Below, in pieces: positions 45,843 to 61,131 of a DNA stretch of 64,000 nt. Under the pieces are notes generated by a model that was given only the letters and a program-made list of their open reading frames with translations, ran no database searches and had not been told where the DNA came from. Each line of letters opens with the position of its first letter. The first letter of the stretch is position 1. A program made the position numbers and the translations under genes. The stretch is from Thermoanaerobacterium sp. RBIITD (GTDB lineage Bacteria; Bacillota; Thermoanaerobacteria; Thermoanaerobacterales; Thermoanaerobacteraceae): contig NZ_LT906662.1 in NCBI RefSeq assembly GCF_900205865.1, positions 1,623,411 to 1,687,410 on the forward strand, written 5' to 3'.

Positions 45843-45875
45843 GCAATTGTCTATTAAAACAATTGCTTTTTTTTG
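45843..45875 (+). terminator. rho-independent terminator after the helicase gene
   Basis: GCAATTGT...ACAATTGC followed by TTTTTTTT. Confidence 0.6.
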
Positions 45876-45892
45876 TAAAAAATTTCTCTGCT

Positions 45893-46157
45893 GATTATGT
45901 TACAAGTTTGTAATAAAAAATTAAGGAATTGTTAATAAATTTTATAAATTTTAATTTTATAATAAAAGGTAAGATATGGGAGGCAAGAATATAAAATGAA
46001 GCATAATATGCGGAAGTGATAAAAATTATTTTTATATTGCGGAATATTTTTAGAATAATTTAGCTTTTATATATATAGAAGGGGAAACAAAAGACGGAGG
46101 TGAAGAAAAAGATTATTCAATGTTCCCAAAAACATATGAGGGAGGGAGATATCTTTT
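45893..46157 (+). repeat. leader module copy A (part 1 joined to part 2; sigma cassette absent; uORF start degenerate)
   Basis: Shares TTATGTTACAAGTTTGTAATAAAAAATTAAGGAAT...GGGAGGCAAGAATATAAAATGAAGCATAATATGCGGAAGTGATAAAAAT...GGAATATTTTTAGAATAATTTAGCTTTTATATA with the other copies. Confidence 0.7.
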
Positions 46158-46838
46158 ATGAAATATCAAAAAAAATTAACAGCAGTATTACTTATAACCA
46201 TATTTTTACTGAGTGTAGTGATTACGGGCTTTACTTCAATATCGAAAGCAAGCACAAAAGAATCACTTGGTGTGAGTGATGCAACAAATTTTGATGATCC
46301 TATTACAGTAATTTCAGGCATGGTTCAGGCGATTAATGAACAGGATCCTTATGAGTATATGACCTATTTTACCAATTCTAATCGCACAGCTATGACACAG
46401 TTTCTTTCAAGTAATAAATCAGAGTCATTCTTTAAAGAGAAGCAAGCAAAGTTGATTCAAATTAAGGAGCTCCCAAAGGACATAGATATAGAAGCAGCAG
46501 GCATATCATCTGGAGAAAACTTAAATTTGGATGATACACGTATTTATTATGCTGAAATTAACTTTAAAGTGGATAAAGAAGATAAATGGCTATATAATGG
46601 TACAAACTATCGTGTTATTGTTGTTACAAAAGAAGATGGAAACTGGAAAATAGTCAGGCTATCAGTTCCATCTATAGAATACTTAAAAGATACTGGCAAT
46701 GGATTTAATTCAAAGGATGAAAATATTGCTGTTAAAATTGAAAGTACTCTTGAGAGAAAAGGACAAGTAATGAATATGAAGGGTGCAGTTATTGATAATA
46801 TTGCTGCAACAGAAGAACAGTTAAAAAATGAAAAATAG
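46158..46838 (+). CDS. lipoprotein; truncated paralog of 58729..59997
   Basis: Signal peptide/lipobox-like N-terminus. It is about 85% identical to the first 225 aa of the 58729 gene and is followed after the stop by a remnant of that gene's C-terminal domain at 46846-46925. Confidence 0.5.
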   Translation: MKYQKKLTAVLLITIFLLSVVITGFTSISKASTKESLGVSDATNFDDPITVISGMVQAINEQDPYEYMTYFTNSNRTAMTQFLSSNKSESFFKEKQAKLIQIKELPKDIDIEAAGISSGENLNLDDTRIYYAEINFKVDKEDKWLYNGTNYRVIVVTKEDGNWKIVRLSVPSIEYLKDTGNGFNSKDENIAVKIESTLERKGQVMNMKGAVIDNIAATEEQLKNEK

Positions 46839-47193
46839 TCCTAGCAAAAACAGCAGTTCAAGCTGGAGCTATAGCTGTAAAAATGTATGGCTGGTACCAT
46901 GTGAATCATCCAAAATGGAACTTTCGTATAATTAGGGGATTATTTGAATGGTATCTGTTGTAAAAATATCAGAAGTAGTAGCCTCTTACAGTTAATATTC
47001 CTAAATTATTATGACATTTCTAAAATGTAAAAAGATAACATTTAATAAAAAATTTATTATTATATAAATTTTAACAGTTATTACATAAATAAAAAAGAAG
47101 GTGATATATTAAAAACCTACTTTAAATTACATGATATTTTATTTAAATTGGAGGAAAAGGAAAATAATTAATTCAAATAAGGAGAGATCTGAA

Positions 47194-47427
47194 ATGAAAA
47201 GAATTTTAGTTACTATTATAATGTGCACTATTTTGGTTTTTTCATCAACTGTTGGCTTTGCAAATGTTGGTGATAATAAACTGAATAGTGTTTCTGCAAT
47301 TGTGAATAAAAATGATGCGAAAAAGATTGCAGCAAATCATGTCATTAGAGAAAAGCATAATGCTGAATTTAAAGACTGGATTAATGGCGAAGTAGACGAT
47401 GGAACAGAATTAGTCGATTTTAAATAA
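47194..47427 (+). CDS. small exported PepSY-like protein fragment (probably part of a disrupted gene)
   Basis: Signal peptide (MKRILVTIIMCTILVFSSTVGFA) and a PepSY-like segment. The reading continues in another frame to about 47570. Confidence 0.3.
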   Translation: MKRILVTIIMCTILVFSSTVGFANVGDNKLNSVSAIVNKNDAKKIAANHVIREKHNAEFKDWINGEVDDGTELVDFK

Positions 47428-47813
47428 TAATGTTATTGCTTATCTTTTTAATGTATATGACAAGACTGCATTATTAGGCTATATTATAGTAAGTGCTAAT
47501 AAAAATATGCCGCCTATTTTAGAATATTCCCGAGCTAGTTCTATAGTATTGGCTTATCCAAGATAAAACAAAATCTTCAAAGAAATGAAACACTTAAAAA
47601 AGCGACTTATGTATATTTTTTCCCTAATACATATATGATAAAATTTATTATAAATAGAAACAATTATGATCAAGAGGAAGAATTATTTGATATTAGAAAT
47701 TATAAAAAAATTATTTATAAAGACATAAATCAAAGTACAATAAATTCCTCAGATATTAACTCTTAGATGTTAATAATGTAAAAACATGGAACAAATTATT
47801 TGATTTTAATCCA

Positions 47814-48341
47814 ATGAATAGTGGAACAATAACTACGAAGAAAATAAGTGGTGTTCCAGATTTGACTTGGTATAAAGGCTGTGCTCCTACATCAGCAGCT
47901 AACTTGATTTATTATTGGGATGCTCATGGATATCCTAACCTTGTTATTAATGAAACTACTAATCAAGTAATAGAAAAATTGGCAATGAATATGGGAACAG
48001 ATAGTAATGGTTCTACTAATGTTTTATTTATTATGTCTGGTACTATTCAATATATAAAATCAAAAGGATATACAAATTTTGATGGTTATGATTTAAATCC
48101 TCCTAGCTATTATGATATAAGGAATGAAATAAATAATTCAAGACCCCTATTATTATCGGTAATAGGACATCCAACTTATGAAAATCATACAATGGCATGT
48201 GTTGGATATGAATACGTAACAGAACTTGGAGAAATAACAGAAGAATATGTAATAGTACATGATACATGGAGTGAAACTCCTACAGATGTGTATATTGCAT
48301 TTGATGGGACTTTCAAATATGCACATATATTTATTCCATAA
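47814..48341 (+). CDS. C39-like papain-fold peptidase domain protein (possibly the 3' part of a disrupted gene)
   Basis: Catalytic-type Cys (WYKGCAPTSAANLIYYW) and His (VIVHDTW). No signal peptide is present on this ORF. Confidence 0.45.
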   Translation: MNSGTITTKKISGVPDLTWYKGCAPTSAANLIYYWDAHGYPNLVINETTNQVIEKLAMNMGTDSNGSTNVLFIMSGTIQYIKSKGYTNFDGYDLNPPSYYDIRNEINNSRPLLLSVIGHPTYENHTMACVGYEYVTELGEITEEYVIVHDTWSETPTDVYIAFDGTFKYAHIFIP

Positions 48342-48354
48342 AAAGGTGATATTT

Positions 48355-48690
48355 ATGATATCAAAAAAATGGATAATGACCATGCTACTTATTTTGGCTC
48401 TCACAGGATGTTCAAATCTAAAAAAACAAGGAGATGTGGTAGGTGGAATATCTGATAATGAAGCTTTGAAGGTAGCTAAAGAAAAAGCGGAAATTACTAA
48501 AGTAAAATCAGAAGAGCTTAAAAATTTAGAAGTTGATCTCGACAAATTTTTTGATGATCCAAAACTTATGGAAAAATCTCCTTGCCCCGTTTACTGGATA
48601 ATAAAAGGTGTTGATAAAGAAGGGAAATCCTTAACTGTATATGTAAATTATAAAAAACCCAGCATTTATTATATTAAAAATGAAAGATAG
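48355..48690 (+). CDS. small lipoprotein
   Basis: Lipobox LILALTGCSN and an RBS (AAAGGTGA). It is about 95% identical to the product of 58106..58441. Confidence 0.55.
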   Translation: MISKKWIMTMLLILALTGCSNLKKQGDVVGGISDNEALKVAKEKAEITKVKSEELKNLEVDLDKFFDDPKLMEKSPCPVYWIIKGVDKEGKSLTVYVNYKKPSIYYIKNER

Positions 48691-48707
48691 TCTAATTGTT
48701 GAATTTG

Positions 48708-48733
48708 TCATGGCATTTGCCATGCTTTTTTTA
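48708..48733 (+). terminator. rho-independent terminator
   Basis: CATGGCATTTGCCATG followed by TTTTTTT; the same element occurs at 58458-58483. Confidence 0.6.
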
Positions 48734-48826
48734 TGTTACAAGATTGTAATAGAAAATTAAGGAATAATTAATAAAATTTATAATTTTTAATTTTATAATA
48801 GAGGTGAGGTATGGGAGGTTAAGAGT
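48731..48826 (+). repeat. leader module copy B, part 1
   Basis: TTATGTTACAAGATTGTAATAGAAAATTAAGGAATAATTAATAAAATTTATAATTTTTAATTTTATAATAGAGGTGAGGTATGGGAGGTTAAGAG, immediately before the ATG of 48827. Confidence 0.7.
48737..48750. promoter_or_regulatory. palindrome TTACAAGATTGTAA, putative operator
   Basis: Also present at 45899-45912 (as TTACAAGTTTGTAA), 52951-52964 and 58487-58500. Confidence 0.4.
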
Positions 48827-49228
48827 ATGGGAGAGAGCGATGTAGAATTTGCATTTATTAAGTTTATTGAAAAATCTATTAATTATGAAGCAGTAAAAGC
48901 CATAAAAAAATATAATGACATTAAAAAGAAAGAACTTTTAACATTAGAGTTACCAGATTACAATGGCAATATTGAAAATGATGGGAAAATTATTGACAGT
49001 ACGGTATACGATAATGTGTTAATTGAAAATGAAATAATAGATAGATTAATGATTTCAAAATGCAAGGAACTGTTGGAAGCGGAAGAATTTAATGTTGTAA
49101 TGCTAAATATAATGCAAGATATACCACAAAAAGAGGTAGCTAAAATGTTAAATAAATCACAATCATCCATAAGCAAGATTAAGAAAAAAGCCCTTAAGAA
49201 AATAAGAAAGTTTATGGAGGGTTCTTGA
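48827..49228 (+). CDS. ECF-type sigma-70 C-terminal fragment (regions 2.3/2.4 to 4.2)
   Basis: EFAFIKFIEKSINYEAVKAIKKYNDIKKKEL aligns to region 2.3-2.4 (compare SigW FSTWLYRIATNLTIDRIRKKK). The C-terminal VVMLNIMQDIPQKEVAKMLNKSQSSISKIKKKALKKIRK is a region 4.2 HTH. Confidence 0.6.
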   Translation: MGESDVEFAFIKFIEKSINYEAVKAIKKYNDIKKKELLTLELPDYNGNIENDGKIIDSTVYDNVLIENEIIDRLMISKCKELLEAEEFNVVMLNIMQDIPQKEVAKMLNKSQSSISKIKKKALKKIRKFMEGS

Positions 49229-49232
49229 AAGT

Positions 49233-49433
49233 ATGTGTAAAAATAAAAGCCTTTTTGAAATTATTTTAAAGGCTAAAGAAGGTGATAAAGATGCTATGCA
49301 AGAGATAATATTGCGATTTCAGCCTCTTATAAAGAAAAACATGAGAAATGTTGATATGGACATAAAAGATGATATAAGTCAGGATATTGTTGAGGTAATA
49401 ATAAAAGCAATCAAAAAATTTGATATAAAATGA
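49233..49433 (+). CDS. ECF-type sigma-70 N-terminal fragment (regions 2.1-2.2 only)
   Basis: LKAKEGDKDAMQEIILRFQPLI...DDISQDIVEVIIKAIKKFDIK aligns to the SigW-type regions 2.1-2.2 (QVKKGDQDAFADIV...AEDIAQEAFIRAYVNIDSFDIN). It has its own RBS (GGAGGG, 10 nt), and its start lies 4 nt after the previous stop. Confidence 0.6.
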   Translation: MCKNKSLFEIILKAKEGDKDAMQEIILRFQPLIKKNMRNVDMDIKDDISQDIVEVIIKAIKKFDIK

Positions 49434-49589
49434 AGCATAACATTCGGAGATGATAAAAATAATTTTTATGATGTGGAATATTTTTAGAAAAAGTTAGCTT
49501 TTATATAAGTAGAAGGAGAAATACGGAAAATGGAGGTGAAAAAAGATTATGAAATATTCCCCTTAAATATGAGGGAGGATTGGATTTAA
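49434..49589 (+). repeat. leader module copy B, part 2
   Basis: CATAACATTCGGAGATGATAAAAATAATTTTTATGATGTGGAATATTTTTAGAAAAAGTTAGCTTTTATATAAGTAGAAGGAGAAATACGGAAAATGGAGGTGAAAAAAGATTATGAAATATTCCCC... Confidence 0.7.
49530..49589 (+). CDS. conserved leader uORF (MEVKKDYEIFPLNMREDWI); its stop abuts the ATG of 49590
   Basis: An RBS (AAGGAGAAA) lies upstream. Equivalent uORFs occur at 54934..54978 and 58670..58732. Confidence 0.35.
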   Translation: MEVKKDYEIFPLNMREDWI

Positions 49590-50327
49590 ATGAAAAGGTT
49601 AGTATCGCTCATTTTATGCTTATCTTTAGCTTTATCTGTGACAATCGCTTATGCAGATCTTTCTACTAATGAACAATCAATAGGTGAAGTATCAGCTGAG
49701 TCAAAAAAACTTTCTGATCAAAAAATAGTTGAAACGGCAAAGCGGTTAGAAGTGTTAAACAAAAAAGTTTCTAATGGACAAGTAAATCCTATGAGTGATC
49801 CACAAATACCACCAAGCAAAATATTAAGTACTTCCGGATATATTGCACAACCTGATAATAGTACATGTGGACCTACTTCTGCTCATAATCTGCTCTTAAG
49901 CTGGGGTAAAAATATATCTATAGATACACTGAAGAAAGATTTGGGATATAATGGTCAAACTCCTTTTGGAGATGCATGGAAAACGACGCTTAATAATTAT
50001 ACAAATTCAACTTATTATGTAGTTACTTGGAGCCCTAGTCAGACAACAATTTGGAATGCTTTCGTTGGGGACACAATTGATGGACACCCATTTATATTAG
50101 ATACACATATGTCGTCTGAAAATGGTTATCTTGAAGGTTATTCTGGATCAACATGGTGGCATTATGTAACAGGAATTGGATATAGTGGCTATAATTTAAA
50201 TTCAGACAATAGTAAATATGGAATATACTTTGATCCGTATGATGGACGTGTGGGTACTTTTGGCCAGCATTCTTTGGAACTGCCCAAATGGGTAAAATTA
50301 GTATCAGAAAGAGGAATAGTTTGGTGA
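49590..50327 (+). CDS. exported C39-like papain-fold cysteine peptidase
   Basis: Signal peptide (LILCLSLALSVTIAYA), a catalytic-type Cys (DNSTCGPTSAHNLL) and a His (WWHYVTGIGY). Confidence 0.6.
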   Translation: MKRLVSLILCLSLALSVTIAYADLSTNEQSIGEVSAESKKLSDQKIVETAKRLEVLNKKVSNGQVNPMSDPQIPPSKILSTSGYIAQPDNSTCGPTSAHNLLLSWGKNISIDTLKKDLGYNGQTPFGDAWKTTLNNYTNSTYYVVTWSPSQTTIWNAFVGDTIDGHPFILDTHMSSENGYLEGYSGSTWWHYVTGIGYSGYNLNSDNSKYGIYFDPYDGRVGTFGQHSLELPKWVKLVSERGIVW

Positions 50328-50408
50328 TTTCATGGTATTCCTTAAGTGTTTTACTTAAGGAATACCATAATCTATATAGATAAAAGTCACTTTGTCTGGG
50401 AGGCTATT

Positions 50409-51488
50409 ATGAATAAAGTGAAACTATGTTTATTAATCATCGTAATCTTAATAATTGGTGGCTGTAGTATTAATAGTACAAGTACAGACTTAAGCAATGA
50501 GAATATAATTATTGATAAAACAAATGGTAATATACTTGATGAGTTAGAAGCTAAAAAAACCTCATCGATTGAAAATGCACATCCAATAGCTGTGCTTGAT
50601 GATGGCAGAAAAGTGTTTTTGCAGGTTAATCCTGAAGTAGACAACAGTATTTTTGTCACTTCAATCGATGGCTCAATAGTGCTTAAAATTAATGCTGAAA
50701 TTTCTAAAAATATTTATGATGCAAAAGTCATGGGGAATTGGATCGTGTATGTTGAATCCAGCAACGATATGACAAAAAGCGATTGGGCTTTGTATGCCAA
50801 AAATATAGATGACAATCGTCGCATAGAAATTGATAAGGGAAATGTTGTAAATGCAAAAGTAAAAACGCCTACTTTGTTAGGAGCGTTGATATCTGCATCT
50901 AACGACAAAATTGTTTGGACAGCTTTTGAAAAAGATGAGAAATCTGTTAATGCAATTGTCAAATTATACGATATTGAAAACAATACTTATAAAATCGTTG
51001 ATAAATTAAATGTTGAAGACGGAGAATTTGGGCAGCCAGGGTTGGATGGGGATTGGCTTGTATATGATATTGGAAAAATCGATATGAAAGCACTGGCGAG
51101 AAATGGGAAATTGGTCCTTGTAAATCTTAAGAATAACGAGAAAAGAATATTAGATGAAGGATTAAGAGTTAGCGGTGCATCAATTAAATATCCATATGTA
51201 GTATGGAATTCAGGCGATTCTATTCTAAAATTATACAATATAAAGACAAAAGAAGAAAAAACTATTGTAAATTGGGGTATGACAGGCGTTTGGAATAGCT
51301 CACTTAATGATAAGTTTATTTCATGGAATACAAACGGTGATGGTTTATACATTTACTCTATAGAAAGAGGAGAGATATTGAAGTTAAAAGATTCAGGTAT
51401 TACAAGCGGTGGTAATATTTCAGGCAATATACTGTGGTGGTACGTCAAAGGAGAAAAGTGCAAATCAGAGTGGATTACTTTAGATTGA
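50409..51488 (+). CDS. lipoprotein with beta-propeller-like repeats
   Basis: Lipobox IIGGCSI, with repeated W/Y-rich strands (WIVYVES, KIVWTAF, WLVYDIG, YVVWNSGD). An RBS (GGGAGG) lies before MNKVKL. Confidence 0.5.
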   Translation: MNKVKLCLLIIVILIIGGCSINSTSTDLSNENIIIDKTNGNILDELEAKKTSSIENAHPIAVLDDGRKVFLQVNPEVDNSIFVTSIDGSIVLKINAEISKNIYDAKVMGNWIVYVESSNDMTKSDWALYAKNIDDNRRIEIDKGNVVNAKVKTPTLLGALISASNDKIVWTAFEKDEKSVNAIVKLYDIENNTYKIVDKLNVEDGEFGQPGLDGDWLVYDIGKIDMKALARNGKLVLVNLKNNEKRILDEGLRVSGASIKYPYVVWNSGDSILKLYNIKTKEEKTIVNWGMTGVWNSSLNDKFISWNTNGDGLYIYSIERGEILKLKDSGITSGGNISGNILWWYVKGEKCKSEWITLD

Positions 51489-51501
51489 ATGAAATTACTG
51501 A

Positions 51502-51912
51502 ATGCTTTTTAATCATATTGGAGTGAGATTTATGATAAAAATTACTAGTACATGTAAATATATACCTTATAAAATTATGTTTGCGCTTTTTATAATTGTA
51601 ATGCTATTGTCACATCTATCAAATATAGCATCAGCAAATGAAAGTTTTGTTATTTTAGACATCAGCAAAGGAAGTATTGTCATAACTTCTACAGGTTATT
51701 CACAAAATAGCAGCAAAGAAATTCCATATACTATACGAGAATACAGTGGACTTCCGGAGTAGGACACGCTATGGTTATTAAAGGTTATGATACCAGCACG
51801 AATTATGTTATTTATAACGATCCTTGGGATGGATACGGGCATGGCGCAACTTACTCATATTATGTAAGTAACAGTAGCTGGTACTGGACAGATTCTCTAT
51901 TTTGGGAATAGT
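51502..51912 (+). pseudogene. C39-like peptidase remnant (frameshifted)
   Basis: An 86-aa ORF with a signal-like N-terminus is followed, in a different frame, by GHAMVIKGYDTSTNYVIYNDPWDGYGHGATYSYY. This is the conserved C-terminal His region of C39-like peptidases. Confidence 0.4.
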
Positions 51913-51934
51913 ATGAATGAGGAGGTGAATTATT

Positions 51935-52798
51935 TTGAAAAAGGTTCTTACTTTTGTTGTGATTGCTATATTGATATTAATATCAACTTTTCCGGCTTTT
52001 GCAGCTACTCCAATAAATACTCTGGTTCAACAACAATTAGATCTAGCTAAAGAAAAAGATCAGGTAGAACGTGCAATTAGCGATAGCCAGTCAAATCCTA
52101 AAAAATTTTTATTCGATAACAAACATGAGCTGGGACGTAAAGAGTTAATGGATGTAAGTAATCCTGACGATTTAATATACGGGAAAGCATATAAAGTGTA
52201 TATTGCTAATAAAGAAGTTATTCAAGATCTAATAGAAGGGAAAAATATTTCTAATGTTCTGTTAAATGCACCTTATGAGTGGGAAGTGCCTGTAAAATTT
52301 AATAATAAAAGTGTAGCGTCAATTACCGTATCTTTTTTGGACAATAGATGGAATGTTGGTGAAATTGGCGGCTATCTTTCGCCTAATTCTATTGATTTTG
52401 TAAGCAATCCTGATGATATAACTTCATATCTTGATAACAATAATTTAAAAGAAGCAAAAACATTTATTCATTTCAGAATACCTTCGTTGCATTCCGATTT
52501 TCTTTATATTGAAGCAAATAGTGGAGAATATTTTATCCCTGTTATTCACGGCGAAGGTAAAAGTGAGCTTTATGGTCTTAAAGACAAAAAAATATATACA
52601 AAAGACGAGATAATTTCCGCTGTTGGTCATACTCTTAAAGCTGGTTTGAAAGATACGGGAATGACAACAGGCCGCCCGTCGGTTAATGGGAAATATCTTG
52701 GCAATCAAGTATACTATTTAATTGTATTGACAATTTTTATTGCCTTTATAACAATTTTTCACTTTATTAGATTGAAACGAAAATACAGTTATAAGTAA
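51935..52798 (+). CDS. exported protein with C-terminal membrane anchor (hypothetical)
   Basis: Signal peptide (VIAILILISTFPAFAATP) and a C-terminal TM helix followed by a basic tail (LKRKYSYK). It has a TTG start with an RBS (GAGGAGGTG). Confidence 0.5.
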   Translation: MKKVLTFVVIAILILISTFPAFAATPINTLVQQQLDLAKEKDQVERAISDSQSNPKKFLFDNKHELGRKELMDVSNPDDLIYGKAYKVYIANKEVIQDLIEGKNISNVLLNAPYEWEVPVKFNNKSVASITVSFLDNRWNVGEIGGYLSPNSIDFVSNPDDITSYLDNNNLKEAKTFIHFRIPSLHSDFLYIEANSGEYFIPVIHGEGKSELYGLKDKKIYTKDEIISAVGHTLKAGLKDTGMTTGRPSVNGKYLGNQVYYLIVLTIFIAFITIFHFIRLKRKYSYK

Positions 52799-52944
52799 AT
52801 AAGCGAATCTAAGGTGGAATATTAAAATTCTATGTTAGACACCCATCAAAAATAGTTGGTGTCTTTTATTTTTTATTTTGCATAGGCAATCAGGATGTAA
52901 GTGTTTATCTGATAAGTTAAGGGACCAATAAAATTTTTCTGCCA

Positions 52945-53000
52945 ATTATGTTACAAGATTGTAATAAAAAATTAAGGAATAATTAATAAAATTTATGATT
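52945..53000 (+). repeat. leader module copy C, part 1, interrupted by an IS
   Basis: ATTATGTTACAAGATTGTAATAAAAAATTAAGGAATAATTAATAAAATTTATGATT, then the IS begins. Confidence 0.65.
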
Positions 53001-54782
53001 TGATTCAAGTGTCATAAGAAGCATTTTTTTAAGCTGCTAATGATAACTTTGCTTGATTTTTACCTGATTTTGTAAGAATAAATTTGATTTTGATATTTTT
53101 ATACAAAGTTGCAGCCATCTCCGCTGCCATTTTCAGTATTTTTTTTGCATTTATGGCTCCTATTTTGAATGAAAACCAGATTTTTGAGCGCACTAATCCC
53201 CTTACAGGTATCACATCTACATAATATTTGCGCCTTAGTATTGATGGAATACCCTCCACTCCATTTCTTATCTTTTGAAGTACACTGTATTCTTCTGTTG
53301 ACATCTTTTTCAAATAGCTTGCTCTTTGTATTGTTTTTGCTGTTATCAGTACATATGCCGATTTCTTTTGTAGCTTCGCTCCACATTTTTCTCTTAGTGG
53401 ACAATGTTCACATGTTTTTTTATTGAAGGATGCTCTATATAATCCTGTTTTTTCATAGTATCTTGTTTTGTATGGTTTTTCTCCTCTTGGGCATTTGATT
53501 ATTTCATGGGTCGTTTCATCTAATTCAAATTCGCTTTGTATTTCATCTGGCAATTTCCCTATAAGAGCTGTTGTTATTAGTTCGATATTGTTTTTATCTG
53601 CAAGTTCTATGTTTTCAATGCTGCTGTAAGCTCCATCTGCTATTATTGTTATTTCTTTTTCTTGTTTCCCTAGCTTTTCTATTGTTTCTTTGCAAAAGCT
53701 GCTATCGCTGTGTGTGTTTACATCATAGTCATAGCTGGTTATTATGGAGCCTTTTTCGTCTATTGTTTCTACTATGTTAGCTACATAGCCTTTATGGTCT
53801 TTTCCTGCTTTTTTGCGATATGTTGCATCTGGGTCGCTTGGGTTTTGAAGACTATCAGGGCTTATTTTTTCTTTTTCTACTGGTACTATCTTGCCTTCTT
53901 CTGTTATTTCTGTTTGTTCTTTTAGTACACGCTGTAATAGCTGATATTCTGGTAATTCAGCGTATGCTTCTCCTAATTCTTTTATTAGTGTATAGGCATC
54001 TTCAATTATTTCTTGAAGTCTTTTTGTTATTTCTTCGTTTTTTCTATGATAGATTGTTTTGTTTCTGTCGTCTTCATCTAGGTAGTGTTCCATGTTTTTG
54101 AGGTGTTGATATTCTCCTGTTTTGTATACTGCCTTGACCATATTTGCTACGCATGTGTATAGTATTTCTAATCTGGACATTTTTTTGCAACTGGATGATA
54201 CCATAATGCTGTCCATTCTTTTTACTGATGGATTTATATTAAAGTATTTTACAAATACGTTTGCCATGGCTTCCATTTCTTCATGAAGAAGGTCTCTTCC
54301 TGTTTCTAGATTGTAAAGATATAGCCTTTCACGAAAACGGCTAAAAGTCCTATCACTGAAAGGTTGACTTTTGAAGCTTGTAGTGTGAAGGGCGTATTGG
54401 AAACGGACATCACATAGGATGCTTGCTAATAGTTCGTCATCTGTGAGATTAAACATTTCTTTTAGTATTAGGGCTCCAATTATTGCGTTTACAGGACTGT
54501 TTGGACGAGAAGCGGGATTGTCACTGTACAATACGGAAAAGCGTTTCTCATTGATTGCTGGAAATATGATTTCAGCAAAGCCTTTTGCCCATGAATTTAA
54601 AACAAACGTTTTTGTTCTTTCATCCAAGTTTAAGAATCTATCATCAATTGTGATTTGTTGATATTCGTTTGGTTTGAATGCCATGGCTATGTATCGCTCC
54701 TTCTATTTCCTTTTGTTTGTATTTCTATTTTACCATATTTTTAGTTTATCATGAAGGAAAAATACTTTTGACACCTTAATCA
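53001..54782 (-). mobile_element. IS1182-family (IS5/IS1182) insertion sequence, about 1.78 kb, with imperfect terminal inverted repeats of about 25 bp and a TGATT direct-repeat flank
   Basis: Left end TGATTCAAGTGTCATAAGAAGCATTTTT and the reverse complement of the right end, TGATTAAGGTGTCAAAAGTATTTTT. TGATT is present at 52996-53000 and at 54783-54787. Confidence 0.7.
53029..54684 (-). CDS. IS1182-family transposase
   Basis: 551 aa with the N-terminal conserved region NPASRPNSPVNAIIGALILKEMFNLTDDEL. A DDE region and a C-terminal Cys-rich segment (CPRGEK...CEHCPLREKC) follow. Confidence 0.85.
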   Translation of the reverse strand: MAFKPNEYQQITIDDRFLNLDERTKTFVLNSWAKGFAEIIFPAINEKRFSVLYSDNPASRPNSPVNAIIGALILKEMFNLTDDELLASILCDVRFQYALHTTSFKSQPFSDRTFSRFRERLYLYNLETGRDLLHEEMEAMANVFVKYFNINPSVKRMDSIMVSSSCKKMSRLEILYTCVANMVKAVYKTGEYQHLKNMEHYLDEDDRNKTIYHRKNEEITKRLQEIIEDAYTLIKELGEAYAELPEYQLLQRVLKEQTEITEEGKIVPVEKEKISPDSLQNPSDPDATYRKKAGKDHKGYVANIVETIDEKGSIITSYDYDVNTHSDSSFCKETIEKLGKQEKEITIIADGAYSSIENIELADKNNIELITTALIGKLPDEIQSEFELDETTHEIIKCPRGEKPYKTRYYEKTGLYRASFNKKTCEHCPLREKCGAKLQKKSAYVLITAKTIQRASYLKKMSTEEYSVLQKIRNGVEGIPSILRRKYYVDVIPVRGLVRSKIWFSFKIGAINAKKILKMAAEMAATLYKNIKIKFILTKSGKNQAKLSLAA

Positions 54783-54995
54783 TGATTTTTAATTTTATAA
54801 TATTAGGTGAGGCAGGTATGTATAAAGTATAAAATGAAGCATAACATTCGTAAATGATAAAAATAATTTTTATGATGTGGAATATTTTTAGAAAAAATTA
54901 GCTTTTATATAAGTAGAAGGGGAAATACGGAAAATGGAGGTGAGGAAAGAGATTATGAAATATTCCCCTAAAATATGAGAGAGGGAAATAAGATT
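54783..54995 (+). repeat. leader module copy C, part 2 (resumes after the IS)
   Basis: ATGATTTTTAATTTTATAATATTAGGTGAGGCAGGTATGTATAAAGTATAAAATGAAGCATAACATTCGTAAATGATAAAAAT... The uORF MEVRKEIMKYSPKI lies at 54934..54978. Confidence 0.65.
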
Positions 54996-56096
54996 ATGAA
55001 AAAGATTTTCTCAATTTTTATTTTAATGATACTCTTTATATGTGGGGCAGTTATTAATGTAAATGCATACACAAATAACGAAAATATGAACAGTAAAGAA
55101 ATCACTAATATAATTACAGAAGCATATCAATATAGGACAAAATCAATAGTTGATCCGTCTTATATAGATAAATTGGAGTTGTTTTATGCAAAATATACAA
55201 AAATTTATAATTTCGAAAAGAATAGATATAAAAATTATATTGAGATGGCAGATAGACTGAATATAAAAATATTAAACATTAAATCCAATGTAGAAATTAG
55301 TAATATTAAGTTAAAAAACAATGATGAATGTCAAGTTGATTTAAAAGAGATTATAAGTTTTGACTGGATAAATTCAAATGATGATCCAATTAATTCTAAG
55401 ACTAACAAATCTGATATGGGTATTGATCATAAAGTTACATTAATTAAGAAAGATAATGAATGGAAAATACAAAAAGATGAATATACTGAAGGATATTTAA
55501 CAAATGTTACTTCTCCGGATTTTGATGTTTCACAATTAAAATCACTGAGTGTACCTGAAATAACGCATGATAATGTAGTTCCATATTCACCACCAGGATC
55601 AACTCCTTATAATAGAAATGCAGCTGCTAACTATGCAGAAAATTATTGTTTGAAATATAATCCTAGTTATAAAAGCTATGATTCAGTTGGTGGTGACTGT
55701 GCAAATTTTGTTTCTCAGTGCTTATATGCTGGTGGGGCCTATTATATTGGATTTGGGATTAATAGTAGTACAAACTGGTGGTATGATAATAAAAATACTT
55801 CTTTAACTACAGATGATGTTGCATCTACTACATGGACATATTGTCCTTCTCAAAGACCTTTTATACTATCAGGGTGGGGTAGTGAAACAACTTCATCAAG
55901 TTTATCAAGAGGAGACATTATATATTATGATTGGGCTGGAGATGGTATATGGGATCACGTTGCTATAGTAACAGGCTTTGATAGTTCTGGCGCTCCCCTT
56001 GTTAGCTGTCATACTACCGATTATCACAATATAAAATGGAATTATGGTGGAAGTTCTTGCAAATATAGTTGCATACACATTAATAATTATATTTAA
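54996..56096 (+). CDS. exported Amidase_6-like putative cell-wall hydrolase
   Basis: Signal peptide (IFILMILFICGAVINVNA). The C-terminal domain has Cys (GGDCANFVSQCLYAGG) and His (GIWDHVAIVTGFD) residues typical of the putative-amidase (PF12671-like) family. Confidence 0.55.
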   Translation: MKKIFSIFILMILFICGAVINVNAYTNNENMNSKEITNIITEAYQYRTKSIVDPSYIDKLELFYAKYTKIYNFEKNRYKNYIEMADRLNIKILNIKSNVEISNIKLKNNDECQVDLKEIISFDWINSNDDPINSKTNKSDMGIDHKVTLIKKDNEWKIQKDEYTEGYLTNVTSPDFDVSQLKSLSVPEITHDNVVPYSPPGSTPYNRNAAANYAENYCLKYNPSYKSYDSVGGDCANFVSQCLYAGGAYYIGFGINSSTNWWYDNKNTSLTTDDVASTTWTYCPSQRPFILSGWGSETTSSSLSRGDIIYYDWAGDGIWDHVAIVTGFDSSGAPLVSCHTTDYHNIKWNYGGSSCKYSCIHINNYI

Positions 56097-56200
56097 TATG
56101 TTAATGTGTTGCATTGATTTTAACCCTTATAAATATAAGGCAATTTTTATGTACTCTTATATTTAAAATTGAATTCAAATTGTAAATTTATATCTGATTT

Positions 56201-56245
56201 CTGCATACTCTAAATAACATAGTAAAGAGTATGCAGTGTTTTTTA
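56201..56245 (+). terminator. rho-independent terminator
   Basis: CTGCATACTCT...AGAGTATGCAG followed by TGTTTTTT. Confidence 0.6.
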
Positions 56246-56272
56246 AACAATTTTCAATGGAGGTGATCGGTA

Positions 56273-56833
56273 GTGGTATTATTTAAAAAAATTGTTTTGT
56301 GTTTTTTGATATTTTTTGCCTTTATTGTGGTCGGATGTTCGGTTCCAAATAACAACATTGCCATTAAAGAAAAGGGAAATAATTCAATAGCACAGAAGTA
56401 TTTCAATATGCTGACGAAGGAAGATATAATTAGAATTTCAAAGGCGTCTCCGGAAGAAATAATAAACATCTATTATAATAGCATAAATGATAAAAATTAT
56501 AATCTCGCCGTTGTTTGTGCTTCCAATTTTTTAAATAATGCAGCAAATAAATCATCTGAAGATATTAGTTATGTGTATAATGAACATATAGAGTATTTGA
56601 AAAATATAAAAAGTATTGATATCAAATCAATAGAAATATATCCAGATACGATAAAAAAGAATGACAGCGAAAATATAGAAAAACCTTCTAAGCTTTACTG
56701 TGTTTATTATATGCAAAAATCGAATGATATTAACAAATTTCCTGAAGAGGGGTACTTCACCAGATTTATTGCAGTTTCTAAGTCACCTTTATATGGTGGT
56801 TGGTGTATAAGTTATATTGCTTCATCACCATAA
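56273..56833 (+). CDS. lipoprotein (hypothetical)
   Basis: Lipobox FIVVGCSV with a GTG start after an RBS (GGAGGTGA). Confidence 0.5.
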   Translation: MVLFKKIVLCFLIFFAFIVVGCSVPNNNIAIKEKGNNSIAQKYFNMLTKEDIIRISKASPEEIINIYYNSINDKNYNLAVVCASNFLNNAANKSSEDISYVYNEHIEYLKNIKSIDIKSIEIYPDTIKKNDSENIEKPSKLYCVYYMQKSNDINKFPEEGYFTRFIAVSKSPLYGGWCISYIASSP

Positions 56834-56872
56834 ATTTTTTTTAAGAAAAGCTATATAGGGGAGGTAGATAAT

Positions 56873-57979
56873 GTGATTAAATCGTTTAAAACTTTATTAG
56901 CTGTTGTATTTTTATTACTTATGTCTGTTGTATTCTCTGGCTGTTCTGACACAGTGAAAAATAATACTGAAGTGCCATTTGTTGTCTTAAATAATGATGA
57001 TGGAAACTTTAAGGCAGATATATATTACTGGAATATAAAAACTAATAAAATAAAAGAAACAAATGAAAATTTATATAAGATTCCACAAAATATAATAACA
57101 AATAAAGAATTATATACGATATTCCCTATGGCTTGGGATGAACAGAATCATGCAGTTTTGCCTTCTTATTTAGAAGTATCAGATAAATTCAAAAACTTTG
57201 TTAAAAAAGCGGATTTTTATTTTCAACCAAAGACGATATGGGGGCAAGACGTAAAGTTGGTAAAAAGCGATGAAGAAAATAGATATAAGTTAACATTAAT
57301 AGATGGCGGTAAGACTGAGGAGAAAGAAATAACAATTCCTCTTCATACTTTTAAAGGTGAAGATGGTAAAGGGTATGAAGCAACAAAATGCGGAACAGTA
57401 ACATCGGTAGTTAAGACAAGTTATGGTGCAGCAATGCTCTATCCTTGCTTCACATTAGGTGGCGGAAAATTATTCATTGTAAAGTATGATAACGCATCAG
57501 AAAGTATCAAATGGCAAGAAGTTGGACCTATTAAAGGTATAGAGTTATCACCTAGCTTTCCGCCATTGGCTAATCATACAGCTACTATCGGAGATAATTT
57601 TATCATAAGAACGCAGACTAATCCTATAGAAGTGTATACCGAAAAAGTAGGTTATAAGATTATAAATAACATATATGATCTTCGGAAGAAATACGCACCT
57701 GAAACATTAAATAGTGAATTTCCTGAATATATAGATATTTTAGGAAGCTATAATGATATTTTGTTTTTAAGTATACCAGTGCATAAAAATGAAGGGACAG
57801 AATTGTATATATTTGCTGTGAAGGATGATAAACTTATAGGGATTATGCACAGAACGATAAATGATATTGAAATAATTGATGCGGCAGGAAATGTTGCATC
57901 AAAATATAATATGCCTAAAGCGAAAACTTTAATTGGCGAAAATGATGTCTATTTTCCAAATGTGAACGGCATGGATTGA
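56873..57979 (+). CDS. lipoprotein (hypothetical)
   Basis: Lipobox VVFSGCSD with an RBS (GGGGAGG). Confidence 0.5.
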   Translation: MIKSFKTLLAVVFLLLMSVVFSGCSDTVKNNTEVPFVVLNNDDGNFKADIYYWNIKTNKIKETNENLYKIPQNIITNKELYTIFPMAWDEQNHAVLPSYLEVSDKFKNFVKKADFYFQPKTIWGQDVKLVKSDEENRYKLTLIDGGKTEEKEITIPLHTFKGEDGKGYEATKCGTVTSVVKTSYGAAMLYPCFTLGGGKLFIVKYDNASESIKWQEVGPIKGIELSPSFPPLANHTATIGDNFIIRTQTNPIEVYTEKVGYKIINNIYDLRKKYAPETLNSEFPEYIDILGSYNDILFLSIPVHKNEGTELYIFAVKDDKLIGIMHRTINDIEIIDAAGNVASKYNMPKAKTLIGENDVYFPNVNGMD

Positions 57980-58105
57980 TTAATAGATTAAATGTTGAAG
58001 ACGGAGAATTCGGACAGCCAGGGTTGGATGGGGATTGGATTGTATATGATATTGGGAATACTTTCATATACACACATATATTTATTCCATAAAAAGGTGA
58101 TATTT

Positions 58106-58441
58106 ATGATATCAAAAAAATGGATAATGACAATGCTACTTATTTTGGCTCTCGCAGGATGTTCAAATCTAGAAAAACAAGGAGATGTGGTTGGTGGAAT
58201 ATCTGATAATGAAGCTTTGAAAGTGGCTAAAGAAAAAGCAAAAATTACTAAAGTAGAATCAAAAGAGCTTAAAAATTTAGAAGTTGATCTGGACAAATTT
58301 TTTGATGATCCAAAACTTATGGGAAAATCTCCTTGCCCCGTTTATTGGATAATAAAAGGTGTTGATAAAGAAGGGAAATCCTTAACTGTATATGTGAATT
58401 ATAAAAAATCCAGCATTTATTATGTTAAAAATGAAAGATAG
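58106..58441 (+). CDS. small lipoprotein, paralog of 48355..48690
   Basis: Lipobox LILALAGCSN. The whole 58020-58570 block duplicates 48290-48830. Confidence 0.55.
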   Translation: MISKKWIMTMLLILALAGCSNLEKQGDVVGGISDNEALKVAKEKAKITKVESKELKNLEVDLDKFFDDPKLMGKSPCPVYWIIKGVDKEGKSLTVYVNYKKSSIYYVKNER

Positions 58442-58457
58442 TCTAATTGTTGAATTT

Positions 58458-58483
58458 GTCATGGCATTTGCCATGCTTTTTTT
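58458..58483 (+). terminator. rho-independent terminator (duplicate of 48708-48733)
   Basis: CATGGCATTTGCCATG followed by TTTTTTT. Confidence 0.6.
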
Positions 58484-58728
58484 ATGTTACAAGATTGTAA
58501 TAGAAAATTAAGGAATAATTAATAAAATTTATAATTTTTAATTTTATAATAGAGGTGAGGTATGGGAGGTTAAGAGCATAATATGCAAAATGATAAAAAT
58601 AATTTTTATGATGTGGAATATTTTTAGAATAATTTAGCTTTTATATAAGTAGAAGGGGCAATACAGAAGATGGAGGTGAAAAAAGATTATGAAATATTCC
58701 CCAAAAATATTAAGGAGGGAGATCTTTT
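58484..58728 (+). repeat. leader module copy D (part 1 joined to part 2, no sigma cassette)
   Basis: Part 1 is identical to copy B up to GGGAGGTTAAGAG and is then joined directly to CATAATATGCAAAATGATAAAAAT... The uORF MEVKKDYEIFPKNIKEGDLL lies at 58670..58732 and overlaps the ATG of 58729. Confidence 0.7.
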
Positions 58729-59997
58729 ATGAAACATCTAATAAGATTAACAGCAGTACTGCTTATAACAACATTTTTAATAGGTATAGTGATTACAGGA
58801 TTTACTTCAATACCGAAAGCAAGCGCAAAAGAATCGGTTAGTCTGAGCAATATAACAAATTTTGATGACCCTATTGCAGTAATTAAAGGGATGATTCAAG
58901 CAATTAACGATCAGGATCCTTATGAGTATATGAACTATTTTACCGATTCTAATCGCACAGCCATGACACAATTTCTTTCAACTAATAAGTCAGAATCATT
59001 CTTTAAAGAGAAAGAGGCTAAGTTGATTCAAATTAAAGAGCTTCCAAAGGAAGTAGGTGTAGTAGCTGCAGGTATTTCATCTGGAGAAAACTTAAATTTG
59101 GATGATACACGTGTTTTTTATGCCGAAATTAACTTTAAAGTGGATAGAGAAGATAAATGGCTATATAATGGTACAAACCATCGTGTTATTGTTGTCACAA
59201 AAGAAGATGGAAGCTGGAAAATAGTAAGGCTATCAGTCCCATCTATAGAATACTTAAAAGATACTGGCAATGGATTTAATTCAGATGACGAAAATATTGC
59301 TGCTAAAATCGAAAGTACTCTTGATAAAAAAGGACAAATAATGAATATGAAAGGTGCGGTTATTGATAATATTGCTGCAAGTGAAAAACAGCTAAAAGAT
59401 GAGAAATTAAATCCTAGAGCTATTGAACCTGAAATAGGCATAGATAGCACAGCAGTTGATGAACATACGAGGCCTTCTAATATCAGGGTTTACATGACAA
59501 ACTCAGTAAATATAAATCATTATGGTTCCGGAACTCACCTTGTTGATTTTGGAGATTATGTGTATAATGTACTGCCAAATGAATGGGGCGACTGGTACAA
59601 TACGGCTAAAACAGCAGTTCAAGCAGGAGCTATAGCTGTAAAAATGTATGGTTGGTACCATGTGTATCATCCAAAATGGAATTTTAGCCCTTACTATGCT
59701 GACGTACAAGATAATATAAATGACCAAGTATATAAATACAATTCAGCGACAACTAATTTTAATAGTGCAGTTAATGATGTTGGAGGGATTGGTGTCGATA
59801 TACTCAGTGGATCGGCTTATGTTCTATTTGAAGTGCATTACGTAGCAGGAACTGAAGGACCAGGCGGGCAATATAGTGGTACGATGTGGCAATATGGAAC
59901 GTTATATTGGGCAAAACAAGGTAAAGGCTATACTTACATGTGCCATTATTATTGGGACAGATCGTCAACTCAGCCAATACATTTCTTTTACTATTAG
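58729..59997 (+). CDS. lipoprotein with C-terminal SpoIID/LytB-like domain (tentative)
   Basis: Lipobox/signal ITGFTSIPKASA. The C-terminal VLPNEWGDWYNTAKTAVQAGAIAVKMYGWY resembles the SpoIID ...ALKAQAVAARTYA region. Confidence 0.45.
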   Translation: MKHLIRLTAVLLITTFLIGIVITGFTSIPKASAKESVSLSNITNFDDPIAVIKGMIQAINDQDPYEYMNYFTDSNRTAMTQFLSTNKSESFFKEKEAKLIQIKELPKEVGVVAAGISSGENLNLDDTRVFYAEINFKVDREDKWLYNGTNHRVIVVTKEDGSWKIVRLSVPSIEYLKDTGNGFNSDDENIAAKIESTLDKKGQIMNMKGAVIDNIAASEKQLKDEKLNPRAIEPEIGIDSTAVDEHTRPSNIRVYMTNSVNINHYGSGTHLVDFGDYVYNVLPNEWGDWYNTAKTAVQAGAIAVKMYGWYHVYHPKWNFSPYYADVQDNINDQVYKYNSATTNFNSAVNDVGGIGVDILSGSAYVLFEVHYVAGTEGPGGQYSGTMWQYGTLYWAKQGKGYTYMCHYYWDRSSTQPIHFFYY

Positions 59998-60066
59998 AGA
60001 TTATTTAATTGAGTAGGAATAATTTATATTTTCCTACTCAATTTTAAAGTTTAGGAGGTATTGTCA

Positions 60067-61131
60067 ATGCGAATAAAAAAATTAACGATATTGGTTTTAT
60101 TTTTACTTTTACTTTTTTTATATGGATGCCGGTATCATATTTTTGATAAAAATCAAGTCAAAGTAATCAAATATTCTGTTCCGAATTTCGGATATTTCTG
60201 TCCGATTTTTTTTCAAGGGAAAGAGGTTGTAGCACAGCAAGGACAAGATACACCAAGGGATTTAACAAATATGACTTTGTATTCTAGTAAAGATTTTAAG
60301 AAATACAATAAAATAGCTTTATTTGAAGGTCATTTTGGACAATTTTATGTTTCACCGTATAATTCAAAAGAAATATTTTTTATGTCTACTGAAGGGAAAG
60401 AAGGCACAGAGCAAATTGTTTTCAAAAGCAACGATGGCGGAAAAAGTTGGGGGCAAGTTTATTATAATTCAGATGATAGTATGATGCTAGCTGATATGAC
60501 ATTTAGTCCTTCCAATAGAAACGAAATATTTTTAGTTAAAAATGATAAAGAACATGGCATTGAAATAATAGAAAGCCATGATTCAGGGATTCATTGGAGC
60601 AAAGCAAATTCTACAAAAGAGATTATTATGTCTACTCATCTTGTGATTGATCCTAATAATTCTAAGCATTTTTTAGTTTCTGCTTCAAATGGTCTTTGGG
60701 AGAGCATTGATGGAGGTGTTTCGTGGAAACAAATAACTACCTCAGAGTCTTTGACAGCTATTTTTGCTCTTTCCAAAAATGATAATGTGTACTTCACAAC
60801 TATGGAATCCATTAATGAAGGATGTATATATGAATTAAATAATGGAAAAATAAAAAAGATTAGCATCCCAAACATGGGAGAGTTAATTTACAACGTTGGA
60901 ATTGCTTATCAAAGCAGTACAGGAAAAGTTTATGTTATAGTAATACGGCAAAATGAAAGCAATTCTATGTATGATACTACTTTATATTACATTAAAAATG
61001 ATTCTTTTAACAAAGTAACTAATATTAAGAGTAAATATAGTACTCTTCCAAATCTGATTTTTGATGCTACAAACTCGAACGTTATATATTTTTACAGCTA
61101 TAAAAATATATACAAAGTTGTCTTATCTTGA
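60067..61131 (+). CDS. lipoprotein with BNR/Asp-box repeats (Ycf48/sialidase-like beta-propeller)
   Basis: Lipobox LFLYGCRY, with BNR-like motifs SNDGGKSW, SHDSGIHW and SIDGGVSW. An RBS (GGAGGT) lies 8 nt before the ATG. Confidence 0.55.
   Translation: MRIKKLTILVLFLLLLFLYGCRYHIFDKNQVKVIKYSVPNFGYFCPIFFQGKEVVAQQGQDTPRDLTNMTLYSSKDFKKYNKIALFEGHFGQFYVSPYNSKEIFFMSTEGKEGTEQIVFKSNDGGKSWGQVYYNSDDSMMLADMTFSPSNRNEIFLVKNDKEHGIEIIESHDSGIHWSKANSTKEIIMSTHLVIDPNNSKHFLVSASNGLWESIDGGVSWKQITTSESLTAIFALSKNDNVYFTTMESINEGCIYELNNGKIKKISIPNMGELIYNVGIAYQSSTGKVYVIVIRQNESNSMYDTTLYYIKNDSFNKVTNIKSKYSTLPNLIFDATNSNVIYFYSYKNIYKVVLS

Follow-up and report, generated by a model that had tools for sequence, protein, structure and literature searches.

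A cassette island of exported-protein genes

The 64,000-nucleotide window analysed here (Thermoanaerobacterium sp. RBIITD, contig NZ_LT906662.1, positions 1,623,411–1,687,410) contains a 15-kb island of genes for exported proteins, which is divided into cassettes by copies of one leader and carries a two-gene sigma factor, S1–S2. The island lies between a SNF2/SWIM helicase gene (42574–45777; coordinates are those of the window, and features lie on the plus strand unless stated) and a LiaF-TM membrane protein gene (61174–61674, minus strand; Pfam), followed by argC. An intrinsic terminator 3′ of the helicase gene (45839–45870; terminator scan and sequence) forms its left boundary. The interval 46158–61131 runs exactly from the first island gene, a truncated paralog of gene A, to the last, the BNR gene B, and the island holds 16 open reading frames (ORFs) of interest and one insertion sequence (IS) element. 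Domains were called with Pfam and NCBIfam, and pseudogenes and remnants were defined against intact orthologs in other genomes (BLAST/tblastn). As the original prediction from the DNA had it, the products between the helicase and membrane protein genes are exported: all 12 of the 12 non-regulatory, non-IS genes begin with a signal peptide or lipobox, the exceptions being the two sigma ORFs and the IS transposase.

Four near-identical leaders head the cassettes

Repeat analysis and alignment revealed four near-identical copies of a leader of ∼270 nt, located at 45879–46157, 48725–48826 plus 49434–49589, 52930–53001 plus 54782–54974, and 58476–58728. A 19-nt leader motif, expected 0.12 times in the window, was found four times in the island, in agreement with the cassette architecture proposed earlier, and a 38-nt motif is found three times exactly and once with four mismatches. 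The complete leaders are directly 3′ of intrinsic terminators detected by the terminator scan, two of which close cassette 1 (48709–48724) and cassette 3 (58460–58475). Because these terminators sit immediately before complete leaders, the island is divided into four transcription units: cassette 1 contains A′, the C pseudogene, and D; cassette 2 contains S1, S2, E, F, an H remnant, and I; cassette 3 contains J, K, L, and D; and cassette 4 contains A and B.

The leader is built of two modules, P and then L2. The P module consists of an inverted repeat (TTACAA-N2-TTGTAA) followed in order by TTAAGGAAT, TTAATAAA, and TATAAT; the L2 module features the core GTGGAATATTTTTAGAAAAATTTAGCTTTTATATAAGTAGAAGG and then the ribosome-binding site (RBS) GGAGGTGA. 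The S1–S2 pair is positioned exactly between the two modules in copy 2. The P module of this copy (48725–48826) reads TTACAA-GA-TTGTAA, TTAAGGAAT, TTAATAAA, and TATAAT, and then an RBS. Its L2 module (49434–49589) contains the core GTGGAATATTTTTAGAAAAAGTTAGCTTTTATATAAGTAGAAGG, position 20 of which is T in most other copies, the RBS GGAGGTGA, and a short upstream ORF (uORF), MKYSP*.

Leader copy 1 (45879–46157; repeat families D1/D4/D5, alignments, and motif matches) joins P to L2 without sigma genes, and its junction retains the last 11 nt of S2, ATATAAAATGA. Leader copy 3 is interrupted by the IS element; its left part (52930–53001) is P module, and its right part (54782–54974) contains the end of P and L2 and likewise retains the S2 stop-codon context. 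Leader copy 4 (58476–58728; repeats and alignments) also consists of P and L2 without sigma genes, with the junction TTAAG/AGCATAA. The last 11 nt of S2 in leaders 1 and 3 and the different junction in leader 4 indicate that the sigma-less leaders were derived from sigma-containing units by at least two separate deletions.

The IS element (53002–54781, minus strand, 1,780 bp) encodes a 551-aa DDE transposase (53029–54684; DDE_Tnp_1_6/DUF772) and has imperfect terminal inverted repeats and a 7-bp target duplication, ATGATTT. Its insertion inside the P module of leader 3 parts the upstream half of P from L2 and provides a natural test of which module drives J-K-L-D.

A uORF follows the RBS GGAGGTGA in the leaders of cassettes beginning with A, E or J (49532–49549, 54946–54963, and from 58673 in the window; also in loci L004, L005, L006, and L017). 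The uORF sequence is MKYSP* in most copies, while others have MFPKT..., MFVKRSPE... or MFMKSIPRE*; the uORF ends just 5′ of the real start codon or overlaps it, and cassettes beginning with H, K or L start the gene at the same position. The uORF could serve in translational coupling, act as a proline-stop stalling element, or be a mere scar.

Several other identities were considered for the leaders and rejected. A riboswitch or structured RNA is disfavoured by the lack of an Rfam match at gathering or permissive thresholds and by folding energies with z of −1.3 to +0.1 relative to shuffled sequences. P and L2 do not align as copies of one bipartite promoter, their spacings being in disagreement. 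An integron is contradicted by the absence from the island of any recombinase besides the IS transposase and by the repeats being 270-nt leaders rather than attC hairpins. As for a phage origin, a viral contig collection gave no match to the leader core and the PHROG matches are weak.

S1 and S2 form a split sigma factor

S1 (48827–49228) is a 133-aa sigma-like protein with region 2.3/2.4-like and region 4 segments and without regions 2.1–2.2. S2 (49233–49433) is a 66-aa N-terminal fragment of sigma region 2 (HTH_16), which starts 4 nt past the S1 stop codon and has its own RBS, GGAGGG. S1 matches Sigma70_r4 in Pfam with an E-value of 1.7e-8, and S2 matches HTH_16 (PF12645) with 2.4e-15. By itself S1 covers only positions 51–164 of TIGR02937 (the sigma70 model of the extracytoplasmic function (ECF) type), scoring 42.3 bits, just under the cutoff of 42.9. 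When S2 and S1 were joined in silico, the match extended over positions 1–164 and scored 54.6 bits; this coverage above the cutoff shows that the two ORFs are complementary parts of one sigma factor in swapped order. The original prediction of an embedded ECF-type sigma is therefore right in that a sigma gene lies inside the island, but the factor is split over two ORFs, with sigma-4 first and the 66-aa sigma-2 fragment second.

The best NCBIfam match of S2 is RsoA, the partner of sigma-O, and next comes the N-terminal ∼65 positions of many sigma factors. The score against the RsoA model (NF041489) is 24.7 bits, far under the equivalog cutoff of 100, and S2 is thus considered part of the same kind of device as SigO–RsoA and not an ortholog of RsoA. 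Judged by domain content, S1–S2 is a two-subunit split sigma of the SigO–RsoA or Tn916 Orf7–Orf8 type.

Seven genomes have both ORFs intact, at exactly 133 aa for S1 and 66 aa for S2, and the ratio of nonsynonymous to synonymous substitution rates (dN/dS) is 0.29 for S1 and 0.14 for S2. The pair is under purifying selection while adjacent enzyme genes decay. The order of a sigma-4 gene followed by a small sigma-2 gene is also seen in loci L007 and L008. On a Paenibacillus peoriae plasmid, a sigma gene without positions 1–50 precedes a small HTH_16 gene, with a YvrJ gene between the two, and the same pairing and split point are present in a locus of Enterococcus faecium that resembles an integrative and conjugative element (ICE) and adjoins an integrase. 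Comparing the leaders with the DNA 5′ of the sigma genes of P. peoriae and E. faecium yielded nothing.

A canonical single-chain ECF (group 4) sigma was rejected on the grounds that the domains reside in two ORFs, in swapped order, in all seven genomes. The end of S2 and the start of S1 can be joined in frame, as expected for circular permutation, excision or circle formation. This possibility was rejected as well, since the two-ORF order is conserved in the seven genomes under purifying selection and is also typical of SigO–RsoA/Orf7–Orf8-type pairs. No anti-sigma domain was detected in any island protein with Pfam or NCBIfam. The sigma ORF is 100% identical to a protein encoded by Thermoanaerobacterium sp. 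RBIITD. The S1 clade is tiny: a word index gave 12 matches, all from Thermoanaerobacterium except one of 37% identity, and HMMER with S1 found 66 matches among 1.84 billion representatives, mostly region-4-only proteins of 130–155 aa. One protein of the representative library, P0067 (647 aa), has an unusual make-up, consisting of seven tandem Sigma70_r4 domains (Pfam 180 bits, 7 stretches) related to the S1 C-terminus.

Secreted enzymes are followed by anchored partners

A (58729–59997) is a 422-aa secreted protein consisting of an NTF2-like (DUF4829) domain and a SpoIID/SleC-type lytic transglycosylase domain. The SpoIID-like domain had been anticipated; it is present in A and its fold was confirmed, with SleC and SpoIID as the best structural matches. 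Across 40 homologs, residue E285 of the LPNEW motif never varies; this residue is a candidate equivalent of the SpoIID catalytic Glu. No record was found for the exact A protein, and a sequence search of the PDB with E, C, A, and J gave no useful matches. A′ (46158–46924; Pfam, BLAST against A, and repeat D7) is a truncated paralog of A, in which the ORF 46158–46838 (226 aa) contains only the signal peptide and the DUF4829/NTF2-like domain, with a 27-aa remnant of the catalytic domain at 46844–46924. J (54975–56096) has a signal peptide and matches Amidase_6 (112.1 bits, cutoff 23.2) and CHAP (29.2 bits), in keeping with the putative amidase of the earlier reading; from leader homology, its true start is likely at 54996.

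E (49590–50327) is an intact 245-aa secreted Peptidase_C39_2 protein (Pfam E-value 1e-10, 42.6 bits, cutoff 24) with a signal peptidase I (SPase-I) signal, AYA/DL, and a weak endolysin match in PHROG. C (47194–48338; tblastn in two frames and Pfam) is a pseudogene with a signal peptide, an Inhibitor_I69-like propeptide, and a C10-like Peptidase_C39_2 domain. A stop and a frameshift, near 47428 and 47760, disrupt this 382-aa gene, whose intact 382-aa ortholog lies at L004:13809-14957. The ORF 47814–48341 is the C-terminal part of frameshifted C (Peptidase_C39_2, E-value 4e-10, 40.9 bits, cutoff 24). A further remnant gene (51532–51908) fuses a G-like N-terminus (51532–51732) to the last 59 aa of the H peptidase (C39_2/C70; 51732–51908); intact H, at L006:12596-13150, scores 57.5 bits with Peptidase_C39_2 and 58.4 bits with Peptidase_C70 (E-value 9e-16). 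CGPTS/CAPTS and H-x-GY motifs are visible in the Peptidase_C39_2 protein sequences. Of the three or four C39-like domains predicted, then, C39_2 is indeed present, but only E is intact, one copy is a pseudogene (C) and one a 59-aa remnant (H); the papain-fold Amidase_6 of J comes in addition. A bacteriocin-processing C39 peptidase was rejected: PF03412 gave an E-value of 0.054, under its cutoff, and the proteins are stand-alone and Sec-exported, not fused to an ABC exporter.

The proteins encoded 3′ of the enzymes are of a different kind. C is followed by D1 (48355–48690), a 111-aa lipoprotein (lipobox LTGC) with a second copy, D2, at 58106–58441. The partner 3′ of E is F (50409–51488), a 359-aa lipoprotein (IGGC), and that of A is B (60061–61131; Pfam), the predicted BNR lipoprotein, which is a 356-aa protein of the Sortilin/BNR type (LYGC). 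I (51935–52798; 287 aa) has a signal peptide and a C-terminal transmembrane anchor and is always found after H in other genomes. K (56273–56833) is a 186-aa lipoprotein (VVGC) that aligns with the A family in hhalign with a probability of 55% and an E-value of 1e-4 over 121 columns; K is probably a DUF4829/NTF2-like domain. L (56873–57979; 368 aa, FSGC) is a lipoprotein of an orphan family, present in all arrays examined, whose homologs make up only 3 near-identical clusters among 5.8 billion proteins. Neither F nor L, both putative beta-propellers, belongs to a detectable family. A 29-aa fragment of an F gene (57970–58056; repeat D8) is a scar of recombination.

The signal type follows a simple rule. 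Every recognisable enzyme (A, C, E, H, J, and, in a related array described below, the Ntox44 protein) has an SPase-I-type signal peptide, and the genes after them encode lipoproteins (B, D, F, K, and L) or I, with its signal peptide and C-terminal membrane anchor. The pairs E–F, H–I, C–D, and A–B and the set J–K–L recur, reshuffled, among genomes. Enzyme genes are often broken and partner genes nearly always intact; in the window the decaying copies, correctly foreseen, are truncated A′, frameshifted C, and the remnants of H and F.

A and B are also adjacent in L006, L009, and L017, and the pair is disrupted in L023. The A family is found in unrelated contexts as well. In the JGI metagenome loci L022 (8001–10347) and L023 (7177–9523), Transposase_mut genes enclose an A homolog of 67% identity, whose BNR partner is disrupted and which adjoins CRISPR RAMP and HEPN/NTase genes. 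The A–B pair travels outside the sigma and leader context too.

The cassettes are shuffled and exchanged between species

The island is found at the same chromosomal site in T. sp. CMT5567-10, T. sp. PSU-2, a JGI metagenome contig, T. thermosulfurigenes, T. butyriciformans, and a metagenome-assembled genome (MAG). The seven sigma-carrying genomes have seven cassette arrangements at this one site, drawn from the same families A–L with a different order and content each time, and in every case P and L2 lie on either side of the sigma pair. Island size varies between 2.3 and 15.4 kb, and most of the genus lacks the island. The comparison across strains that had been proposed beforehand thus found a locus that is not perfectly conserved or syntenic, with both content and order varying. 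Five other Thermoanaerobacterium genomes carry A, and in 4 of them the gene is truncated or frameshifted. Three T. thermosaccharolyticum loci have a reduced island, with K-L-F-D plus a truncated A or with L-D only, and without the sigma pair; the truncated A has lost its catalytic part, and otherwise only partner genes are present.

Synonymous divergence (dS) between the window and other genomes is 0.02–0.28 for island genes, 1.2–1.3 for argC, and saturated for SNF2. Nucleotide identity is 89–98% in the island and 71–82% in the flanks. The low dS and high identity of the island against its diverged flanks indicate that cassettes move between species while the site stays fixed. The turnover between strains predicted for the locus is borne out by the seven arrangements and the reduced sigma-less islands, but the locus is not merely strain-variable, being exchanged between species (dS 0.02–0.28 against >1.2).

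A distant version of the island, with S1 45% identical, is present in a Thermoanaerobacter MAG and in metagenome contigs. The P module, nearly invariant across six genomes, keeps its blocks and spacing in these Thermoanaerobacter loci despite the divergence of S1, and the L2 core is conserved there as well. In Thermoanaerobacter loci with a sigma of only 45% identity, the A–B cassette reaches 87% and 81% identity, and cassettes probably move between genera also. The Thermoanaerobacter-type arrays have the sigma pair or its remnant before several cassettes. This repetition of sigma pairs, together with the S2 stop-codon context retained in two leaders of the window, suggests that the ancestral unit was P-S1-S2-L2-cargo.

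In the related array L017/L009, one cassette with the same L2 leader encodes a protein that has a signal peptide and an Ntox44 domain (49.8 bits), and next to it a DUF5412 membrane protein. Ntox44 is regarded as a nuclease domain of polymorphic toxins (bioRxiv 10.1101/2020.05.11.077669). L009, the Thermoanaerobacter MAG, also contains a second, unrelated repeated leader of ∼145 nt (25–169 and 10159–10313), placed before the Ntox44 cassette and another exported-protein cassette. An RNPP-type regulator (HTH_3 and RNPP_C) with a 50-aa ORF (8927–10143) adjoins this second leader, which suggests quorum-sensing control of the sister cassettes.

A possible effector and immunity array under a private sigma factor

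We tentatively favour the view that the locus is a hypervariable, interspecies-exchanged island of independent cassettes in which a split sigma governs Sec-released effectors, directed against related bacteria, and anchored inhibitor or immunity partners. One of the four near-identical leaders is upstream of S1, and from this shared leader we infer that the leaders depend on the sigma pair. The effector and immunity functions proposed for the cargo fit the release of the enzymes versus the anchoring of their partners, the partner-only islands, the polymorphism among strains, the exchange across species, and the toxin cassette in the sister array. Among the contexts considered, the pattern of a secreted enzyme and an anchored partner, the partner-only islands, and the Ntox44 cassette lend indirect support to antagonism.

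Such a system might operate as follows. The ancestral unit would have been P-S1-S2-L2-cargo, and all but one of the units in the window would have lost the sigma pair through small deletions. Some signal would switch on P upstream of S1; S1 and S2 would assemble into a two-subunit sigma that reads its own leader, in a positive feedback like that of SigO and Orf7/8, as well as the sigma-less leaders, so that all cassettes would be expressed together. The released enzymes would be A (a lytic transglycosylase of the SpoIID/SleC kind), E, C, and H (papain-fold peptidases), and J (Amidase_6), and each is followed by one or two proteins that would be held on the producer surface (lipoproteins B, D, F, K, and L, or membrane-anchored I). 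The effectors would degrade the cell wall or surface of related bacteria, with the anchored partners acting as cognate inhibitors or immunity proteins. The identical leaders could double as portable homology, through which recombination would reorder, gain, and lose cassettes.

A number of observations weigh against this view. The leader identity could stem partly from gene conversion rather than function. In this AT-rich DNA a sigma-70 promoter scan gave no information, finding 100 sites where 100.8 were expected, and the −35 and −10 elements of the leader are not assignable. The sigma-less T. thermosaccharolyticum islands retain intact leaders, and either another sigma can read these or the islands are silent. 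Peptidases of the C39_2, C70, and C10-like types need not act on the cell wall. Pfam and NCBIfam link none of the partners to a known immunity or inhibitor family, the K–L cassettes have no recognisable enzyme, and the single-sequence AlphaFold2 model of D is unusable, with a predicted local distance difference test (pLDDT) score of 49.6. No catalogued toxin domain is found in the window, Ntox44 occurring only in the related array L017/L009. Finally, the enzymes are conserved and not diversified, E being 98–99% identical across genomes.

The same conservation would suit the chief rival explanation, which we consider unlikely: self-directed envelope remodelling or stress response, in which the enzymes would be autolysins or surface proteases acting on the producer's own wall or S-layer, the lipoproteins would be regulators, scaffolds or inhibitors, and the split sigma would sense envelope stress. 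IseA-type inhibitors control autolysins and offer an analogy for such lipoproteins. The island products are enzymes of peptidoglycan type that remain close to the cell, and the LiaF-TM gene adjoins the island and diverges along with it. In Bacillus subtilis, SigO–RsoA has been reported to respond to acid stress and cell-wall antibiotics (PMC10141391), which supports this explanation. A housekeeping system, however, is not likely to range from 2.3 to 15.4 kb. The many pseudogenised enzymes, the interspecies exchange, and the absence from most of the genus would also be unexpected, and the Ntox44 cassette behind the same leader fits poorly.

It is improbable that the island is what is left of a decaying mobile element, such as an ICE or prophage, with an Orf7/Orf8-like pair, miscellaneous cargo of no coherent present function, and leaders that are recent duplications. 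The sigma pair does resemble pairs on ICE-like and plasmid loci, the island contains an IS element and many gene fragments, and it is horizontally exchanged. Yet no integrase, relaxase, conjugation or phage gene is present in the island, the viral collection lacks a leader match, S1 and S2 evolve under purifying selection in seven genomes, and the leader blocks are conserved across genera; the consistent grammar of an enzyme and then an anchored partner also speaks for function. A sporulation or germination module, in which A would act like SpoIID or SleC on cortex or septal peptidoglycan under a developmental sigma, is very improbable and the weakest context, given the variable island size and the frequent enzyme pseudogenes: the structural matches of A to SleC and SpoIID and the weak matches of S1 and S2 to sporulation sigma models favour it, but the latter are generic region-2 and region-4 matches far under equivalog cutoffs, A is broken in most of the other Thermoanaerobacterium genomes that have it, its family occurs in unrelated contexts, and the island is dispensable and mobile.

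A more specific form of the effector and immunity reading, possible but doubtful, is an integrase-free cassette system, in which the non-coding leader would be both the promoter of a private two-subunit sigma and the homology for swapping modules of a Sec effector and an anchored immunity protein among Thermoanaerobacterium species, even with Thermoanaerobacter, and sister species would carry immunity-only islands. If true, Gram-positive thermophiles would have a means, not described before, of organising and regulating interbacterial antagonism that needs no dedicated secretion system.

Relation to known systems

The locus is a combination, via the shared leader, of a split sigma of the SigO–RsoA/Orf7–8 type and a polymorphic array of putative effector–partner cassettes. 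SigO–RsoA (YvrI–YvrHa) of B. subtilis is a characterised two-subunit sigma (PMC8103513, PMC7826278, PMC10028694) with a small, local regulon and closely similar promoters, including its own (PMC8103513, PMC7826278). RsoA is the best NCBIfam match of S2, but S2 is not its ortholog, S1, with its 133 aa, is shorter and its Thermoanaerobacterium/Thermoanaerobacter clade is tiny, the cargo here comprises exported hydrolases where that of SigO is oxalate decarboxylase, and no YvrJ or YvrL homologs were seen here. Tn916 Orf7/Orf8, reported to activate its own promoter with read-through into downstream genes (PMC5812530), shares the adjacency of a sigma-like protein and a small HTH_16 protein, and the analogous E. 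faecium pair adjoins an integrase. Here, in contrast, there is no integrase, excisionase or conjugation module, and the pair presumably controls a chromosomal cassette array. The group-5 clostridial sigmas TcdR, BotR, TetR, and UviA are also small, divergent, locus-specific factors for exported toxic or lytic proteins of clostridia-type Firmicutes (PMC8103513); they differ in being single polypeptides without a repeated-leader cassette array, and no specific similarity was detectable.

Polymorphic toxin–immunity arrays (LXG/type VII secretion, MafB, and orphan modules of Rhs/contact-dependent inhibition systems) resemble the island in their effector-then-protector pairs, cassette polymorphism, recombination at conserved sequences, and protector-only ('orphan immunity') loci, and the Ntox44 cassette of the related array adds to the likeness. 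Distinct from these arrays, the island uses plain Sec signals without a dedicated secretion system and encodes whole small enzymes, not C-terminal domains on a carrier; the recombining sequence is a non-coding leader, and immunity is putative. A itself differs from SpoIID and SleC in having an N-terminal NTF2-like domain and a Sec signal, in its placement in a mobile cassette with a BNR lipoprotein, and in being often pseudogenised.

Surveys of ECF sigmas explicitly leave split sigmas aside (PMC7826278). The locus provides a second, compact case of a split sigma, with its presumed regulon adjacent in four near-identical copies and with natural controls in the sigma-less islands, the IS-broken leader, and the diverged Thermoanaerobacter versions. 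If the cassette grammar is one of effector plus immunity, the island would represent Sec-dependent antagonism in thermophilic anaerobes used for biofuel work, and would give roles to several orphan lipoprotein families and to DUF4829, Amidase_6, and C39_2 proteins.

Flanking genes

The protein of the right flank, which consists of LiaF-TM only, is 95–97% identical across species whose argC is only 80–82% identical. The dS of its gene is 0.28–0.49 against 1.2–1.3 for argC, and this far lower divergence than that of the next gene suggests that the LiaF-TM gene may travel with the island, being co-transferred or functionally tied to island genes. The gene is absent from the Thermoanaerobacter-type loci. 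Elsewhere in the window, a thiamine pyrophosphate (TPP) riboswitch (36728–36826; Rfam RF00059, 76 bits), an ordinary known element, is located upstream of the ORF 36890–37528; the syntenic gene in L028 encodes a YuaJ-type thiamine transporter.

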